In this document: piece by piece, positions 4,176 to 17,441 of the stretch
Layout of the letters: each line of letters opens with the position of its first letter
Position numbering within the stretch: the stretch's first letter is position 1
IMG/VR virus record: IMGVR_UViG_2534681703_000014
Span: 1-45,442 of that record
Source of the DNA: a virus
Taxonomy: Duplodnaviria > Heunggongvirae > Uroviricota > Caudoviricetes
Length of the DNA: 45,442 bases
Strand: one strand, 5' to 3'
Notes under the pieces: model-generated
What the model was told of the DNA's origin: nothing
What the model saw: the letters and a program-made list of their open reading frames with translations, nothing else
Database searches by the model: none
Position numbers and translations under genes: made by a program

Positions 4176-4254
4176 TTTGTTTTACCTCATTACAGATTTA
4201 AGGGTGAACAAATCCCTGCCATTGCTGGCATATAAAAATGAAACTGGATATTAA

Positions 4255-4748: not shown

Positions 4749-5204
4749 TGTTTTTGGTTTTAACTGTTCCGCGTGCGCTTAGCCGCATTCACCGCATCAC
4801 AAAATTCACTTTAAAAAGGGCGGCAGAGCAGTCACGGAGTAAAACTGATACCGCTAAACGCCACCAGAAAATTGATAACAGAGGGCGTTGCAGCGGGGTT
4901 GTCACTTAAGCGTATGGTCAACCTGACAACCCGGTGTCCTCAACGGGGAAGGAATAACCCCGCCATACTTACCGCCGCGCCATTTCGCGGATTGCCACAA
5001 CCGGAAGCGCACGGTCGACGAAAATTTAACGACAGGCTATCTATGAACCAGCAACCTCGCCGTGCGCTTTCGCGTTATGCTCTGACTTTTCAGAGAAATA
5101 TCCTTTCAGTAAACTGTCAGTACCGGATGCTCACCCGTGTCCGGCGCACGCACTCCACCTCACCCGTGGAGAACTCCTTAAGTACCAACCCTCAGGATGG
5201 TGAA

Positions 5205-6190: not shown

Positions 6191-6427
6191 TCACTCACCT
6201 GAGTTTCTTTCCAGCCAGCGACGGGCACCATTTTCGGTTTTAAACGTTTTGCTTTTGGTATACGTCATCGCGGTGAACGTACCGTCCTGGTTGGGGAACA
6301 CGCCACATACCAGAGATTCGCTGTTGCCAAGATCGATAGTATCCATGCTGACCTCATTTCCCCTTAACGCCGGGGTAGCGGAACAAAAACCTGCTGCATA
6401 GTTATTAAAGTTGAACCCTGCCGTCAT
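6191..6427 (-). CDS. Hypothetical early protein (78 aa)
   Basis: First ORF downstream of the putative pL region at 6428-6637. Confidence 0.45.
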   Translation of the reverse strand: MTAGFNFNNYAAGFCSATPALRGNEVSMDTIDLGNSESLVCGVFPNQDGTFTAMTYTKSKTFKTENGARRWLERNSGE

Positions 6428-6637
6428 GTTCTTACGCCTCGGGCTGGCTACTTAACCCCTGACCACTGCCTGGTAACTCGAAGTATTGCCCTGCATTATG
6501 TGGGGCGGGGTGGGTTGATATTTTTAGTTTAATAAACATTAAACTTAAGTCAAGTAAAAACTAAACCGCAGGGCGTAACAAACACAACGCTTTTGATAAA
6601 GTCGTTGCGGTTGTTATGTTTCTATTGGTAGTGAAAG

Positions 6638-6916
6638 TTAGGGAAACTGGCGTCTTGCGTGGATCACGTTTACTACTTCAACGCTTGATGTTGTTACGCG
6701 GTATAGAATTATATAGTTAGGGTGGGCTACAATCTCACGCAAGCCAGGTACTCTGTCGCTTGGTGGGTATAAATACGGATGTTCGGATAACGGCAGCACA
6801 CAACCCCTTAATCGCTGCCATAAGCGTTCAGCCGCATCTATGTCGAAACGAGCAATATAACTAGTTATATCATCTAGGTCGGTATCTGCGCTTTCAAGCC
6901 ATAACACGGGTAACAT
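6638..6916 (-). CDS. Type II toxin, RelE/ParE superfamily (92 aa from internal ATG)
   Basis: Size, basic C-terminus (...NVIHARRQFP) and pairing with an upstream small RHH-like antitoxin ORF whose stop is 1 nt from this start; family call from remembered ParE-like sequences. Confidence 0.65.
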   Translation of the reverse strand: MLPVLWLESADTDLDDITSYIARFDIDAAERLWQRLRGCVLPLSEHPYLYPPSDRVPGLREIVAHPNYIILYRVTTSSVEVVNVIHARRQFP

Positions 6917-6917
6917 T

Positions 6918-7109
6918 TTACTGCTTGCTCCGTTCCTTGCGCATTTTAGCAAAGCGTTCTGCCATTCTGCGCTCAACTTCGTCATGGGGAATTGCTGGGC
7001 GTGGATCTGCAAGGCTCGTTGCTACTTTTGCACGCAGCCATTCGTTGTAACTGTTTTCTTGTTCAATGGTTTCAAATTCAGAAACCATTGGTGAAAGGGC
7101 TCTATTCAT
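6918..7109 (-). CDS. Type II antitoxin, ParD-like (63 aa)
   Basis: Small ORF MNRALSPMVSEFETIEQENSYNEWLRAKVATSLADPRPAIPHDEVERRMAERFAKMRKERSKQ with strong GGAGG SD; immediately precedes the ParE-like ORF. Confidence 0.6.
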   Translation of the reverse strand: MNRALSPMVSEFETIEQENSYNEWLRAKVATSLADPRPAIPHDEVERRMAERFAKMRKERSKQ

Positions 7110-7129
7110 GTTTCCTCCGGTTTTATAAC

Positions 7130-7501
7130 TCAGGCGCGGCGGCATTTTTGCGCCGCAATCCATCTCGCTATGAGATCTTCCATTGATTCTTTTTTCTGCT
7201 TTAACTCGCTGATTATCTGGCGTTGCTCATCCTCAGGGAAGGCTGAAAAAATCTGCAATAATTCCAGTTGATTAGACGTTAACCCTGCATGTGGTGGAGA
7301 AACCTCCGGTTGTTCTGCGTATTCCGCATCCAGATACCCTTCCGGCATCCCGTATGTTTGCTCTATTCTTCTGGCAGCCTTTTCTCCAAACGAGGCTCTC
7401 CCACTCATTAGTTGAGATAGGTAGCTCTTCTCTTTGGGTGGCAGAGTTTTATCTTTAAACCACTCCTTGAGACGTAAACGGCGAATTTCTTTTTTTTGCA
7501 T
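7130..7501 (-). CDS. Prophage repressor, short HTH (XRE-like) protein without a peptidase domain (123 aa)
   Basis: HTH-like segment SYLSQLMSGRASFGEKAARRIEQTYG; divergent from a Cro-like gene across a 98-bp operator region. Confidence 0.65.
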   Translation of the reverse strand: MQKKEIRRLRLKEWFKDKTLPPKEKSYLSQLMSGRASFGEKAARRIEQTYGMPEGYLDAEYAEQPEVSPPHAGLTSNQLELLQIFSAFPEDEQRQIISELKQKKESMEDLIARWIAAQKCRRA

Positions 7502-7599
7502 GTGGTAATTATCTTTAGTAATCACTAAACAAGCAAATACTTGACTTAATGGTTTATTAAACACTAAACTCTCAAAAAAAACACTAAACCGAGGAAGGT
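7502..7599. promoter_or_regulatory. Divergent promoter/operator region (OR-like) with three CACTAAAC repeats and a TTGACT -35-like hexamer
   Basis: CACTAAAC at 7523-7530, 7562-7569 and 7582-7589; TTGACT followed about 18 nt later by TAAACT upstream of the cro-like start. Confidence 0.55.
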
Positions 7600-7902
7600 A
7601 TGACATTAAAAGAGTTTATTAAATCATTGAGGGTTGGTGATGCTAAGAAATTCGCAGCCAGACTTGGTGTATCGCCATCTTACTTATCGCAAATGGCGTC
7701 TGGACGAGCAGCTATATCTCCAACACGCGCCCTTATGATCGAATCTGCGACGGAAGGCCAAGTAAGTAGGGCGGAGCTACGACCCCATGATTGGGAGCTT
7801 ATTTGGCCTGAGTATGCGAGCGGCATTCGTTTGGGGCAAACACATGTAGTTCATGCTGAAGGTGATTGTAGTGCATGCTTATCTGATGGAGTTGATTCAT
7901 GA
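7600..7902 (+). CDS. Cro/YdaS-like HTH regulator (100 aa)
   Basis: HTH-like segment KKFAARLGVSPSYLSQMASGRAAISP; first rightward gene after the operator, as in Rac-type immunity regions. Confidence 0.7.
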   Translation: MTLKEFIKSLRVGDAKKFAARLGVSPSYLSQMASGRAAISPTRALMIESATEGQVSRAELRPHDWELIWPEYASGIRLGQTHVVHAEGDCSACLSDGVDS

Positions 7903-8324
7903 AAATCAAGCATGAACACATCCGCATGGCGATGAATGCCTGGGCGCATCCGGACGGTGAAAAAGTTCCGGCTGCGAAAATTACCAAAGCGTATTTCGAG
8001 CTGGGAATGACGTTCCCGGAACTGTATAACGACAGCCATCCGGAAGCCCTGGCTCGCAATACTCAGAAAATTTTCCGCTGGGTAGAGAAAGACACCCCTG
8101 ATGCGGTTAAAAAAATTCAGGCGTTGTTACCAGCTATCGAAAAAGCAATGCCACCTCTGCTGGTGGCCCGAATGCGCAGCCACAGTTCAGCCTGGTTTCG
8201 GGAGCTGGTGGAGACGCGGGAACGGCTGGTGAGAGACGCTGATGATTTTGTCGCAGTGGCGATCGCTGGTTTCAACCAGATGAATCGTGGTGGCCCTGCG
8301 GGAAATATTGTGGCTGTGCATTGA
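7899..8324 (+). CDS. YdaT-like protein (CII-position gene of Rac-type immunity regions)
   Basis: N-terminus MKIKHEHI matches my recollection of Rac YdaT; follows the YdaS-like gene with a 4-nt overlap. Confidence 0.55.
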   Translation: MKIKHEHIRMAMNAWAHPDGEKVPAAKITKAYFELGMTFPELYNDSHPEALARNTQKIFRWVEKDTPDAVKKIQALLPAIEKAMPPLLVARMRSHSSAWFRELVETRERLVRDADDFVAVAIAGFNQMNRGGPAGNIVAVH

Positions 8325-10701: not shown

Positions 10702-11118
10702 GTGGCAAAAGTATTTACACCAGAAGAGCGGGAAAAAATTAAAGGGCAGGTTATTGAACTCGTGCGCCAGAGTGGGCGCGAGACGTTACGGCAACTGGAA
10801 GCTAAAACAGGGGCGACAAGATACCTGATGAGCGTTCTCGCCAGAGAGCTGGTTGCCAGTGGTGATGTATACAACTCTGGCTACGGGTTATTCCCGTCTG
10901 AACAGGCTCGTAAGGACTGGATAAAGGCCCGCAAAAAGATGTCGAAAGCAGCAGTGAAAAAAAAGAGCGACCCGGACTTGGTTTATTCATTACCAGACGG
11001 AGAAATACGTCGTTACAACAGACGACAGAACATAATCTGTCGCGAGTGCCGGAAGAGTGAGGTTATGCAGCGAGTGCTGGCGTTTTATCAGGGGAATTTT
11101 GAGGAGGAGGTACTGTGA
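10702..11118 (+). CDS. Hypothetical nin-region protein
   Basis: GTG 10702 preceded by GGAGG; the track's upstream start corresponds to TTG. Confidence 0.45.
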   Translation: MAKVFTPEEREKIKGQVIELVRQSGRETLRQLEAKTGATRYLMSVLARELVASGDVYNSGYGLFPSEQARKDWIKARKKMSKAAVKKKSDPDLVYSLPDGEIRRYNRRQNIICRECRKSEVMQRVLAFYQGNFEEEVL

Positions 11119-12366: not shown

Positions 12367-12602
12367 TTTTATGGATCACCTTTCTGATTGATTTCATATT
12401 GGCGAGGTAGCAGGAGTTAAGTAGAATTGCTGCGGGTGCTTGAGGCTATCTGTCTCAGGCATGAACACCAAAAGGCAGATAGAGAAAAGCCCCAGTTAAC
12501 ATTACGCGTCCTGCAAGACGCTTAACATTAATCTGAGGCCATATCTATGCGACACATAGAGATTAGCCTCTTACGGACCGAAAGGTCAAGGAGAAGCAGG
12601 CT

Positions 12603-12758
12603 ATGAAGCAGCGAAAGGCGATGTTAATCGCCCTGATCGTCATCTGTTTAACCGTCATAGTGACGGCACTGGTAACGAGGAAAGACCTCTGCGAGGTACG
12701 AATCCGAACCGGCCAGACGGAGGTCGCTGTCTTCACAGCTTACGAACCTGAGGAGTAA
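12603..12758 (+). CDS. hok: Hok/Gef-family type I toxin (51 aa)
   Basis: Translation MKQRKAMLIALIVICLTVIVTALVTRKDLCEVRIRTGQTEVAVFTAYEPEE aligns by eye with Hok ([52 protein letters not shown]); not in the ORF track (under 60 aa). Confidence 0.7.
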   Translation: MKQRKAMLIALIVICLTVIVTALVTRKDLCEVRIRTGQTEVAVFTAYEPEE

Positions 12759-15622: not shown

Positions 15623-16534
15623 TTAAAGTAGTTTCCTATCTGCCGCCGCTCTGTGGCGTATAACCTTAGTAATACTATAGCGTGGTTTAGACAGCGCGCC
15701 ATTTGTTTCTTTTGTTGTTTCTGTCAGTTCTACAACAAAAAGATCACCCTTACAGAATGCTGCTTGGTTGTGTTCAACCCGTTCAAGAAAAGCCTCATCT
15801 TTCATAGATGCACTAACTTCTTCGCCATTTGGCAGGATGATATCCCAGCTTTTGCCTTGCTTGAATCGAACATTAGCAAAATGTACATTAGCTTGGCGTG
15901 TCGTTACGTGCGTTTTCTCGACAAAGGTGGATTTTGCAGTTTTAAAACTTACTGCTTCAGCTTGCGTCACCCTGACTACCTTATGCTTCTGCTGTGAAAC
16001 TGAGAACGTGGATGGTTTTTCAGTCTGCAGGGGTTTATAGATTAATTTATCCAGTTCTTTTCGGATGATTGGACTGGTTATTAATTTTTGAATGTCGTTA
16101 CTGCATTTAACCTTCTCACCATCCACTTCGATTTCTGCTGTATCTTTTTGTTCATCGACGACAATGGAGCTGATTTTACGCCCTTTGAGCCATTCGATTA
16201 TCCCGAGTACGCCACCTGCGGCAACTCCACCACCTGCAACGAGGCCAAGGGCGTTAATAGTTTTTATGCTCCCCATCACAGCAACAAGCAAAGTAAATGA
16301 ACCTTCTTTTGTTGCCTTGATGTTGACTTTCGGCTCTGCTGTTTCGCCATTAATTATTTTTTCGGCGTGTTCAATCAGGGCACTAAGAGAGGTTAAGGCT
16401 TCGCCTAATGTTTTCGCGTCGATCTGATTATCTGCGTATGCCTCTCCACCGTAGGCAATTTCGATTTCTGTTATTGGCATGTTTTCGAGTTGCTGCGTCA
16501 TCAAAAGCATCCTTTGCGCAAGAGAAATAGCCAC
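15623..16534 (-). CDS. Unknown 303-aa protein with central Gly-rich hydrophobic segment and Lys-rich C-terminal domain; first gene of cassette
   Basis: Long ORF; hydrophobic FTLLVAVMGSIKTINALGLVAGGGVAAGGVLGIIEWL near residues 80-115; start uncertain (GTG 16534, ATG 16510 or 16480); no family recognised. Confidence 0.55.
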   Translation of the reverse strand: MAISLAQRMLLMTQQLENMPITEIEIAYGGEAYADNQIDAKTLGEALTSLSALIEHAEKIINGETAEPKVNIKATKEGSFTLLVAVMGSIKTINALGLVAGGGVAAGGVLGIIEWLKGRKISSIVVDEQKDTAEIEVDGEKVKCSNDIQKLITSPIIRKELDKLIYKPLQTEKPSTFSVSQQKHKVVRVTQAEAVSFKTAKSTFVEKTHVTTRQANVHFANVRFKQGKSWDIILPNGEEVSASMKDEAFLERVEHNQAAFCKGDLFVVELTETTKETNGALSKPRYSITKVIRHRAAADRKLL

Positions 16535-16766: not shown

Positions 16767-16842
16767 GGCCCTTTAGCTCAGTGGTGAGAGCGAGCGACTC
16801 ATAATCGCCAGGTCGCTGGTTCAAATCCAGCAAGGGCCACCA
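16767..16842 (+). tRNA. tRNA with CAU anticodon, resembling E. coli tRNA-Ile2 (ileX-like); Met cannot be excluded
   Basis: Manual cloverleaf: acceptor GGCCCTT/AAGGGCC, D-arm GCTC..GAGC, anticodon loop CTCATAA, T-arm GCTGG-TTCAAAT-CCAGC, 3' ACCA. Confidence 0.85.
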
Positions 16843-16843
16843 A

Positions 16844-16920
16844 CCGCCACTAGCTCATCAGGAAAGAGCGTCAACCCTTTAAGTTGAGTGTGCGAGGTTC
16901 GAGTCCCCGGTGGCGGTCCA
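16844..16920 (+). tRNA. Atypical tRNA-like gene, apparent anticodon UUU (Lys) with C33 and U73
   Basis: Acceptor CCGCCAC/GTGGCGG, D-arm GCTC..GAGC, anticodon stem TCAAC/GTTGA with loop CCTTTAA, T-loop TTCGAGT with one stem mismatch, 3' TCCA. Confidence 0.5.
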
Positions 16921-16922
16921 GT

Positions 16923-16998
<76 letters not shown>

Positions 16999-17001
16999 TA
17001 T

Positions 17002-17076
<75 letters not shown>

Positions 17077-17441
17077 GCATTTGCAACAAGCCTTATTGTA
17101 TTGCGGCACTGGTGTATTTTTTATTACGTGGGAGCAGGTTGTTTTGAAAAAGCATTCTGTTCTCTGGCTATAATTTGAGGCCAGGTGTAGCCTCAGTGCT
17201 GATTTTTTTACGACAGCAGAATGGTGCATTATCGGTGGAGATTTTGTATTTCCTGGCAGGGTCGGTGATGCATCATTCTGGTGTTGTAAATCGCACCAAA
17301 GAGGCGCACCTAAGTGCGAGTGTGGTTTAAAGAGTCGGTTTAGCTGGAAATCACAGTATCCATACAGCACGGAATACTTCGGGAGGCGCCAGACGCCTCG
17401 GTTTAATAACAATTAAAAAATTCATCCCTTGCATTGACCAA

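Follow-up and report, generated by a model that had tools for sequence, protein, structure and literature searches.

What is encoded in the short A/T-rich words that recur between a prophage repressor gene and its divergent cro-like neighbour, and again ahead of the leftward early genes, and which unit would the repressor recognise? In the window (the whole 45,442-bp stretch of DNA analysed herein), the original prediction took three CACTAAAC copies in the first of these regions, and AACTAAAC in a 210-bp noncoding gap at the second, for operator motifs of OR and OL. Reading of the sequence confirmed the three copies at 7523-7530, 7562-7569 and 7582-7589, AACTAAAC at 6559-6566, and the gap itself at 6428-6637, between the start of a ydfA-like ORF (6427) and the stop of parE2 (6638). 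The region is very probably the immunity switch of a CP-933P/Sp12-type lambdoid prophage, with the motifs as its OR and OL operator half-sites. The operators, promoters and regulators of the CP-933P-type switch were already mapped experimentally in 2021 (Jurenas et al., 2021); the feature is thus correct, but not new.

The gene content of the locus follows the CP-933P arrangement. On the minus strand lie the ydfA-like ORF (6191-6427; Pfam DUF1391), the toxin gene parE2 (6638-6916; Pfam ParE_toxin, E=1.9e-16), the antitoxin gene paaA2 (6918-7109; Pfam PaaA2 PF21217, E=1e-19), and paaR2 (7130-7501), an ORF starting MQKKE that encodes a 123-aa CI-analogue repressor with an N-terminal HTH. Both paaA2 and parE2 are identical to the CP-933P alleles, and this toxin-antitoxin (TA) pair is placed between the repressor and PL, as had been proposed and as in CP-933P. 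On the plus strand, ydaS (7600-7902; Pfam YdaS_toxin/HTH_3), the Cro analogue, is followed by ydaT (7899-8324; Pfam YdaT), and a CII-type activator box, the YdaT box, is located at 7892-7909. No Pfam domain was found in the 123-aa PaaR2, which is without an S24 peptidase domain. Its residues 1-71 match PDB entries 7NKV, 8C3K and 8C3L, named 'Phage repressor protein CI' (E=1e-39 for 7NKV/8C3K), while YdaS matches 8C7K, 'Phage antirepressor protein Cro' (E=7e-63), as well as 8CO2. Structures of YdaS and of the N-terminal domain of PaaR2 have been deposited; in the literature collection searched, no paper on these five entries was found. Directly 3' of the parE2 stop and upstream of PL, an inverted repeat with 19-nt arms forms a hairpin (6576-6616, minus strand), and the RNA fold of 6545-6640 has an energy of -22.1 kcal/mol (z=-3.3). 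This hairpin is plausible as a putative terminator of the paaR2-paaA2-parE2 operon.

The repeated words are confined to the two regulatory regions. In a whole-window search of both strands, CACTAAAC was found only as the three copies at OR (1.05 expected window-wide), and the 7-mer ACTAAAC occurred four times in 45,442 bp (both strands), all four within the 308 bp of OR and OL, including 6560-6566; a similar spread of the motif throughout the prophage is thereby ruled out. Each of the 8-mers makes up the right half of an 18-bp dyad of the form GTTTAGT-N4-ACTAAAC, at IR1, IR3, IR4 and OL dyad b. With up to two mismatches, the dyad GTTTAGTNNNNACTAAAC has four matches, starting at 6527, 6549, 7513 and 7552, against 0.08 expected; none of 100 window shuffles reached four, and when every position was scored against GTTTAGTNNNNACTAAAC, these four sites stood far above all others. 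Furthermore, half-sites with at most one mismatch number 12 in the 308 bp of OR and OL and 78 in the other 45 kb, a density about 22-fold higher. Two candidate sites elsewhere in the prophage, dyad matches with three mismatches at 10981 and 17401 (1.13 expected by chance), were treated as noise. An IHF-type site, considered by eye, found no support, AATCAC being incompatible with WATCAR.

The OR region (7502-7599) contains four sites that start at 7513, 7533, 7552 and 7572, with a spacing of about 20 bp as in the published four-repeat set. The published account describes four inverted repeats of 18 bp at equal spacing (half-site GTTTAGTAA), of which IR1 overlaps PRM933P, IR3 overlaps PR, and IR2 and IR4 are without a conserved left half-site; it also describes a second, overlapping operator class of three 'pseudosymmetrical operators' (OR1-3, with OL1-3 at OL) (Jurenas et al., 2021; PMC8630535). 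In the window, IR1 (CTTTAGTAATCACTAAAC; 7513-7530) has one mismatch to GTTTAGTN4ACTAAAC, its left half at 7513-7519, and holds the first CACTAAAC copy. IR3 (GTTTATTAAACACTAAAC; 7552-7569) likewise has one mismatch to the dyad, with its left half at 7552-7558, and holds the second copy. Between them, a possible IR2 (GCAAATACTTGACTTAAT; 7533-7550), placed by reconstruction from the published text, is degenerate, with two mismatches to the core in its right half and a degenerate left half, and it overlaps both -35 elements. IR4 (TCAAAAAAAACACTAAAC; 7572-7589) is a right half-site only, holding the third copy as an exact 8-mer; within it, AAACACTAAAC is an 11-nt direct repeat of 7559-7569. From IR1 to IR4 the sites cover 77 bp, in agreement with the published protection of about 78 bp by PaaR2.

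These sites are interleaved with two divergent promoters. A promoter scan placed the equivalent of PR933P, which drives ydaS-ydaT, at 7541-7570 on the plus strand (TTGACT-18-TAAACT). The equivalent of PRM933P occupies 7501-7536 on the minus strand and gives a leaderless mRNA, starting at the A of the paaR2 ATG (7501); from the published leaderless start we infer a -35 element TTGCTT (7536-7531) and a -10 element GATAAT (7513-7508), and both hexamers are kept in relatives. The spacer of PRM is taken up by IR1. At PR, IR3 falls between the -35 and -10 elements, and IR4 follows the -10, covering what is presumed to be the start region and the 5' UTR. The arrangement is therefore one of divergent repressor and cro promoters with reiterated operators, in which dyads fall within both PRM and PR.

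A second operator cluster is present at the leftward early promoter, with its centre about 1 kb from that of OR. Here PL, the PL933P equivalent, was found by promoter scan at 6526-6553 on the minus strand (TTGACT-16-TAAACT), with hexamers identical to those of PR, and it drives a leftward operon that includes the ydfA-like gene (DUF1391) and DicF. At least two dyads are present at OL, within 6527-6566. Dyad a (GTTTAATAAACATTAAAC; 6527-6544) has two mismatches to the dyad and sits between the PL -35 and -10, whereas dyad b (GTCAAGTAAAAACTAAAC; 6549-6566), also with two mismatches, overlaps the PL -35 and has AACTAAAC as its right half (6559-6566). The proposal of operators at both OR and OL thus held, but it had overlooked the left halves and the whole of the dyad at 6527-6544, inside PL.

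The degree to which published experiments can be applied to the window depends on its identity with the allele of E. coli O157:H7 EDL933. Most of the EDL933 CP-933P primers (Table S3, PMC8630535) map onto the window with no mismatches, across OR and OL. The EMSA primers FL2 and FL1 map exactly to 7502-7523 and 7580-7599 and so bound 7502-7599; the PL933P cloning primers F-PL/R-PL fall at 6520-6541 and 6617-6637, making the published PL933P-gfp fragment 6520-6637, with OL dyad b inside it; and the leaderless-start primer F-1-PaaR2 maps to 7474-7501, ending at 7501. A locus from E. coli strain 124 (L001) was used as a stand-in for the published allele because every primer matches it exactly, including those that fail on the window. 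Compared with L001, the OR of the window has two differences, neither of them in the repeats: a T for G at 7572 and an extra A. The extra A, between IR3 and IR4, makes the run at 7574-7581 A8 rather than A7, and the paaR2-ydaS intergenic region 98 bp rather than the published 97 bp. At OL (6519-6569) the window is identical to L001, and the operator repeats are base-for-base identical to those of the published allele. PaaR2 is identical to the CP-933P allele over residues 1-65, its sole differences (EV vs GG) being at 66-67, after the DNA-binding domain; YdaS has a single substitution, A37T, and YdaT 23 amino acid differences. Since the operators and the DNA-binding N-terminal part of PaaR2 are identical, the experimental results carry over to the window, with the reservation that all of them were obtained with the EDL933 allele and that the window allele has one extra A between IR3 and IR4.

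In those experiments, PaaR2 and YdaS each shifted the 97-bp paaR2-ydaS intergenic fragment by EMSA. DNase I footprinting at OR showed continuous coverage of about 78 bp by PaaR2, and two stretches of 27 and 32 bp covered by YdaS (Jurenas et al., 2021; PMC8630535). The Cro analogue YdaS therefore binds the same intergenic region as PaaR2. Both PR933P and PRM933P were repressed by either protein; PaaR2 activated PRM about 4-fold at low dose and repressed it at high dose, in an autoregulatory manner, while YdaS repressed PRM first and PR second, and the paaR2-ydaS locus was bistable. Downstream of parE2, PL933P carries the OL1-3 operators and hexamers identical to those of PR, and PL933P-gfp was repressed about 100-fold by PaaR2 or YdaS; footprinting was done on OR only, and binding at OL was inferred from this reporter repression. 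The paaR2 mRNA was found to be leaderless by 5' RACE and the N-terminal sequence MQKKE, and a 5' RACE start agreed with the predicted PR933P. In addition, PaaR2 octamerises, is without a RecA-cleavage motif and shows no response to mitomycin C, and paaA2-parE2 occupies the position of lambda rexAB. According to the authors, direct and inverted repeats may both serve, and the precise bases contacted remain to be determined (PMC8630535). The proposal that the repressor recognises this motif is hence borne out for the motif region, by published EMSA and footprints on near-identical DNA, but the unit is most likely the 18-bp dyad rather than the 8-mer.

The choice of unit can be addressed by comparison across genera. 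A scan of one genome per species yielded 27 loci encoding PaaR2 relatives with 44-76% amino acid identity, from Xenorhabdus, Photorhabdus, Arsenophonus, Yersinia, Erwinia, Morganella, Raoultella, Enterobacter, Mycoavidus, Glomeribacter, Massilia and others. For each locus, the 220 bp preceding the repressor gene were aligned, and per-column counts were made over 26 sequences (the window and 25 relatives), L015 and L028 being left out as poorly aligned. In this 26-sequence alignment, IR1 shows conservation of 96% or more in TTAGT and TAAA(C), with TTAGT in at least 25 of 26. The back-to-back -35 elements, AAGCAAAT.CTTGAC, are nearly invariant, as are positions 7531-7545. At IR3, GTTTA and TAAAC are each present in 26/26, and TAAACT in 25-26/26. 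The promoter hexamers by themselves explain some of the conservation seen at IR3 and at 7531-7545, and the two -35 hexamers could account for the latter. Past 7571 the commonest base falls to 35-73%, so that 7571-7599 is not conserved, and the columns of the third CACTAAAC (IR4) are gaps or variable in relatives. The left half of IR2 is likewise not conserved there. Most relatives carry IR3 as GTTTAGTGTTTAATAAAC, which is exactly the reverse complement of the IR3 of the window and argues for a dyad and not for an oriented repeat.

The same pattern is seen at OL. Within the 5-kb loci of these relatives, TTAGTN4WMTAAAC was found only in the 110 bp or so that precede the repressor gene, or about 260-1,360 bp past its end, and the second clusters have the OL layout of a dyad, then GTCAAG, then TAAAAANTAAAC. 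Dyads homologous to OL dyad a are present at the OL of five loci (L024, L026, L027, L029 and L016), and sequences similar to dyad b (GTCAAGTAAAAAATAAAC / GTAAAGTAAAAATTAAAC) at those of L029 and L016. The interval between the repressor and OL is empty in L016, whereas L029 has an Arc/RHH-family ORF there and L024 has two unknown ORFs. This variability is in keeping with paaA2-parE2 as cargo in a slot like that of rexAB. In L024, moreover, the PaaR2-type HTH of the repressor is joined to a Peptidase_S24 domain. The published work is extended only by this cross-genus footprint and by the finding that, among the sequences examined, IR4 occurs in those of E. coli type alone. The footprint narrows the authors' question of which bases are recognised, pointing to the GTTTA(GT)...(AC)TAAAC dyads IR1 and IR3 as the core sites.

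Several other explanations of the repeats deserve consideration. An unlikely one is that the CACTAAAC copies act in one orientation, as direct repeats or as the other operator class of the published study, for a single regulator such as YdaS or octameric PaaR2, with dyad symmetry being secondary. The three exact copies do all point one way, 39 and 20 bp apart, IR4 is without a left half-site, and use of both direct and inverted repeats is allowed for by the authors (PMC8630535). Against this, left and right half-sites are equally well conserved across genera (GTTTA in all 26 sequences at IR3, TTAGT in no fewer than 25 at IR1), relatives do not have the third direct copy, and orientation is not kept, the reversal of IR3 in most of them being what would be expected of a dyad.

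That the repeats stem from promoter modules related by duplication or shared ancestry, and do not constitute a repressor recognition sequence, is still harder to accept and has very little probability. PR and PL share identical hexamers, of which the -10 TAAACT overlaps the motif; the second CACTAAAC copy overlaps the PR -10 and OL dyad a overlaps the PL -10. However, the first and third CACTAAAC copies lie off any -10 element in that orientation, the conserved GTTTAGT bases sit in promoter spacers, which normally drift, and the published footprints span exactly this stretch (PMC8630535). Finally, the high A+T content of OR (70%) and of the OL core (79%) raises the question of whether an A/T-rich word might recur by chance in intergenic DNA that is itself A/T-rich. 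When the 98-bp OR was shuffled with its composition kept, an 8-mer was present at least three times in only 16 of 20,000 cases, and these local controls, the window shuffles described above and the conservation of the motif across genera leave chance a negligible probability; it was ruled out by the window-wide and local shuffle controls. An operator dyad bound by the repressor is accordingly the preferred reading.

The anatomy and its conservation suggest a recognition unit in the form of an 18-bp, partly symmetric dyad, GTTTAGT-N4-ACTAAAC. Bound to such dyads at OR and OL, the repressor would occlude RNA polymerase at PR and PL, and occupation of IR1 would shut off PRM. The paaA2-parE2 pair is carried on the repressor transcript, in the slot held by rexAB in lambda. 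Octameric PaaR2 might plausibly loop the DNA between OR and OL, a distance of about 1 kb, although this is hypothetical.

Altogether, these results raise a broader proposal, for which we consider the case evenly balanced: the OR core of about 60 bp (IR1, the back-to-back -35 elements and IR3) and the OL dyads may form an immunity cassette that is kept nearly base for base in prophages whose hosts are distant from one another (Enterobacterales and Burkholderiales, fungal endosymbionts among them), while the C-terminal module of the repressor is swapped (PaaR2-type oligomerisation vs LexA-like S24) and the slot between repressor and OL is either empty or takes varied cargo (paaA2-parE2, an Arc/RHH-family ORF or unknown ORFs). 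If this proposal is true, cross-immunity would be predicted among these phages, and IR4 would have been added recently, in the E. coli lineage, with tighter control of PR as its effect. At a coverage of at least 80%, the CP-933P/Sp12 immunity type is found in 590 of 5,426 complete E. coli genomes, and it also occurs in a Stx2k-converting prophage and in phage Evi. Since the module is common to the Stx2k prophage and to these E. coli genomes, its control logic bears on the biology of Shiga-toxin phages.

Comparison with known systems places the switch among lambdoid prophages with a specificity of its own. The Rac prophage of E. coli K-12 has the same layout of a repressor gene followed by divergent ydaS-ydaT, with a leaderless mRNA and multiple intergenic operators (PMC9638921; PMC11879457), but one RacR operator overlaps the racR coding sequence and no TA pair follows racR. 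The YdaS and YdaT of CP-933P share only 26% and 31% identity with their Rac counterparts (PMC8630535). RacR operators have the form (T/A)TAGGC-N3-GCCTA(T/A) (PMC9638921); this consensus is absent from OR and OL, its sole match in the window with up to two mismatches being at 16394, against 4.25 expected by chance. A Rac-type identity of the OR and OL motifs is ruled out by this absence, from which it follows that Rac and CP-933P-type prophages have different immunity specificities.

The switch operates in the manner of lambda OR/OL. Like the window, lambda has divergent PRM and PR whose dyad operators are reiterated, and a further operator cluster at PL; its repressor mRNA is leaderless, accessory genes are carried on the repressor transcript (rexAB vs paaA2-parE2), and a CII-type activator box is present. 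Its operator sequences, however, are unrelated to those of the window, and no detectable protein similarity was found. Furthermore, lambda has three 17-bp sites where the window has four 18-bp sites about 20 bp apart, its OL and OR are separated by 2.3 kb instead of about 1 kb, and PaaR2, in contrast to the lambda repressor, is without the S24 autocleavage domain and is not SOS-inducible.

Closer to the window are the PaaR2-like relatives (e.g., L024, and loci of Xenorhabdus, Photorhabdus, Yersinia and Erwinia), which have a homologous N-terminal HTH with up to 76% identity, the same core of IR1, -35/-35 and IR3, and OL-type dyads past the repressor gene. They differ in the C-terminal domain (LexA-like S24 in L024), in having no third CACTAAAC, and in carrying other cargo or none before OL. 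The closest match is CP-933P itself (Sp12 in Sakai), which, although its flanking prophage is a different mosaic from that of the window, has the same genes, gene order, promoters and repeats, the same leaderless repressor mRNA, and the TA pair in the same position between the repressor and PL.

The CII-analogue YdaT has a single exact match to its box, TTGATTCATGAAAATCAA, in the window, which lies at the ydaS/ydaT junction (7892-7909) and is the counterpart of the published OM site at PRE933P (PMC9986795). On the other side of the switch, a stable hairpin is found on the minus strand at 6576-6616, directly 3' of the parE2 stop codon and ahead of OL/PL. Folding of the RNA spanning 6545-6640 gave -22.1 kcal/mol with a z-score of -3.3, and the hairpin probably terminates transcription of the paaR2-paaA2-parE2 operon; no mention of it was found in the sections consulted of the CP-933P switch paper (PMC8630535). 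Two further sequences resembling the operator dyads, GTTTATTCATTACCAGAC (10981-10998) and GTTTAATAACAATTAAAA (17401-17418), each with 3 mismatches, were rejected as operators, since their number falls within the chance expectation of 1.13.

Comparison with the CP-933P allele revealed several differences in the switch region. At position 7572 the window carries T where CP-933P has G, and the nearby A run (7574-7581) comprises eight residues instead of seven. This additional A accounts for both the 20-bp spacing between copies 2 and 3 of CACTAAAC, the right half-sites of IR3 and IR4 (19 bp in CP-933P), and the 98-bp length of the paaR2-ydaS intergenic region (97 bp in CP-933P). Slippage within this homopolymer, which lies at the PR start region, could explain the difference. 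Within PaaR2 itself, residues 66-67 are Glu-Val in the window, Gly-Gly in the CP-933P allele and Glu-Ala in the STEC711 allele, and constitute a variable linker directly past the crystallised N-terminal domain.

Among complete genomes, the nearest copy of the immunity region (99.1%) resides in the Stx2k-converting prophage of E. coli STEC711. An isolated phage, Evi (LR597642.1), has the region as well (98.3%), so cryptic prophages are not the only carriers of the module. For window positions 1-25000, coverage by any complete E. coli genome was 65% at most, with 94% identity; as a whole, this mosaic prophage is absent from the complete E. coli genome collection. Its RNA genes include the DicF sRNA (4818-4869, minus strand, 68.6 bits), located inside the PL-driven leftward operon, and further right the sok antisense RNA (12434-12605, plus strand, 106.7 bits), part of a hok/sok module. 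In addition, a Met(cat)-Lys(ttt)-Thr(tgt)-Gly(tcc) tRNA cluster is present at 16767-17076, whereas the CP-933P-like and Stx2k prophages (L001 and L002) bear an Ile-Arg-Arg cluster in the corresponding position.

At 2501-3133 of L024, a locus from a record titled Martelella alba, lies a gene for a fusion of a PaaR2-type N-terminal HTH (76% identical to PaaR2 over 58 aa) with a LexA-like Peptidase_S24 domain. The locus has the same OR dyads as well as a pair of OL dyads (4200-4246), and represents an SOS-inducible form of this immunity type. Two Erwinia loci (L020 and L022) likewise combine the 76% N-terminal PaaR2 match with these OR dyads. In Xenorhabdus khoisanae (L015), a tandem array of approximately 21-bp, ACACATAACACTATTTACCGT-like units directly upstream of the repressor gene occupies the place of the OR core seen in other loci, with a dyad-pattern match upstream of the array at 2162-2177. 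The slot between the repressor gene and the OL or OL-like dyads seems to accept varying cargo: paaA2-parE2 in the window, nothing in another Xenorhabdus locus (L016), an ORF of the Arc/RHH family in Massilia (L029), and in L024 two unknown ORFs of 83 and 125 aa.
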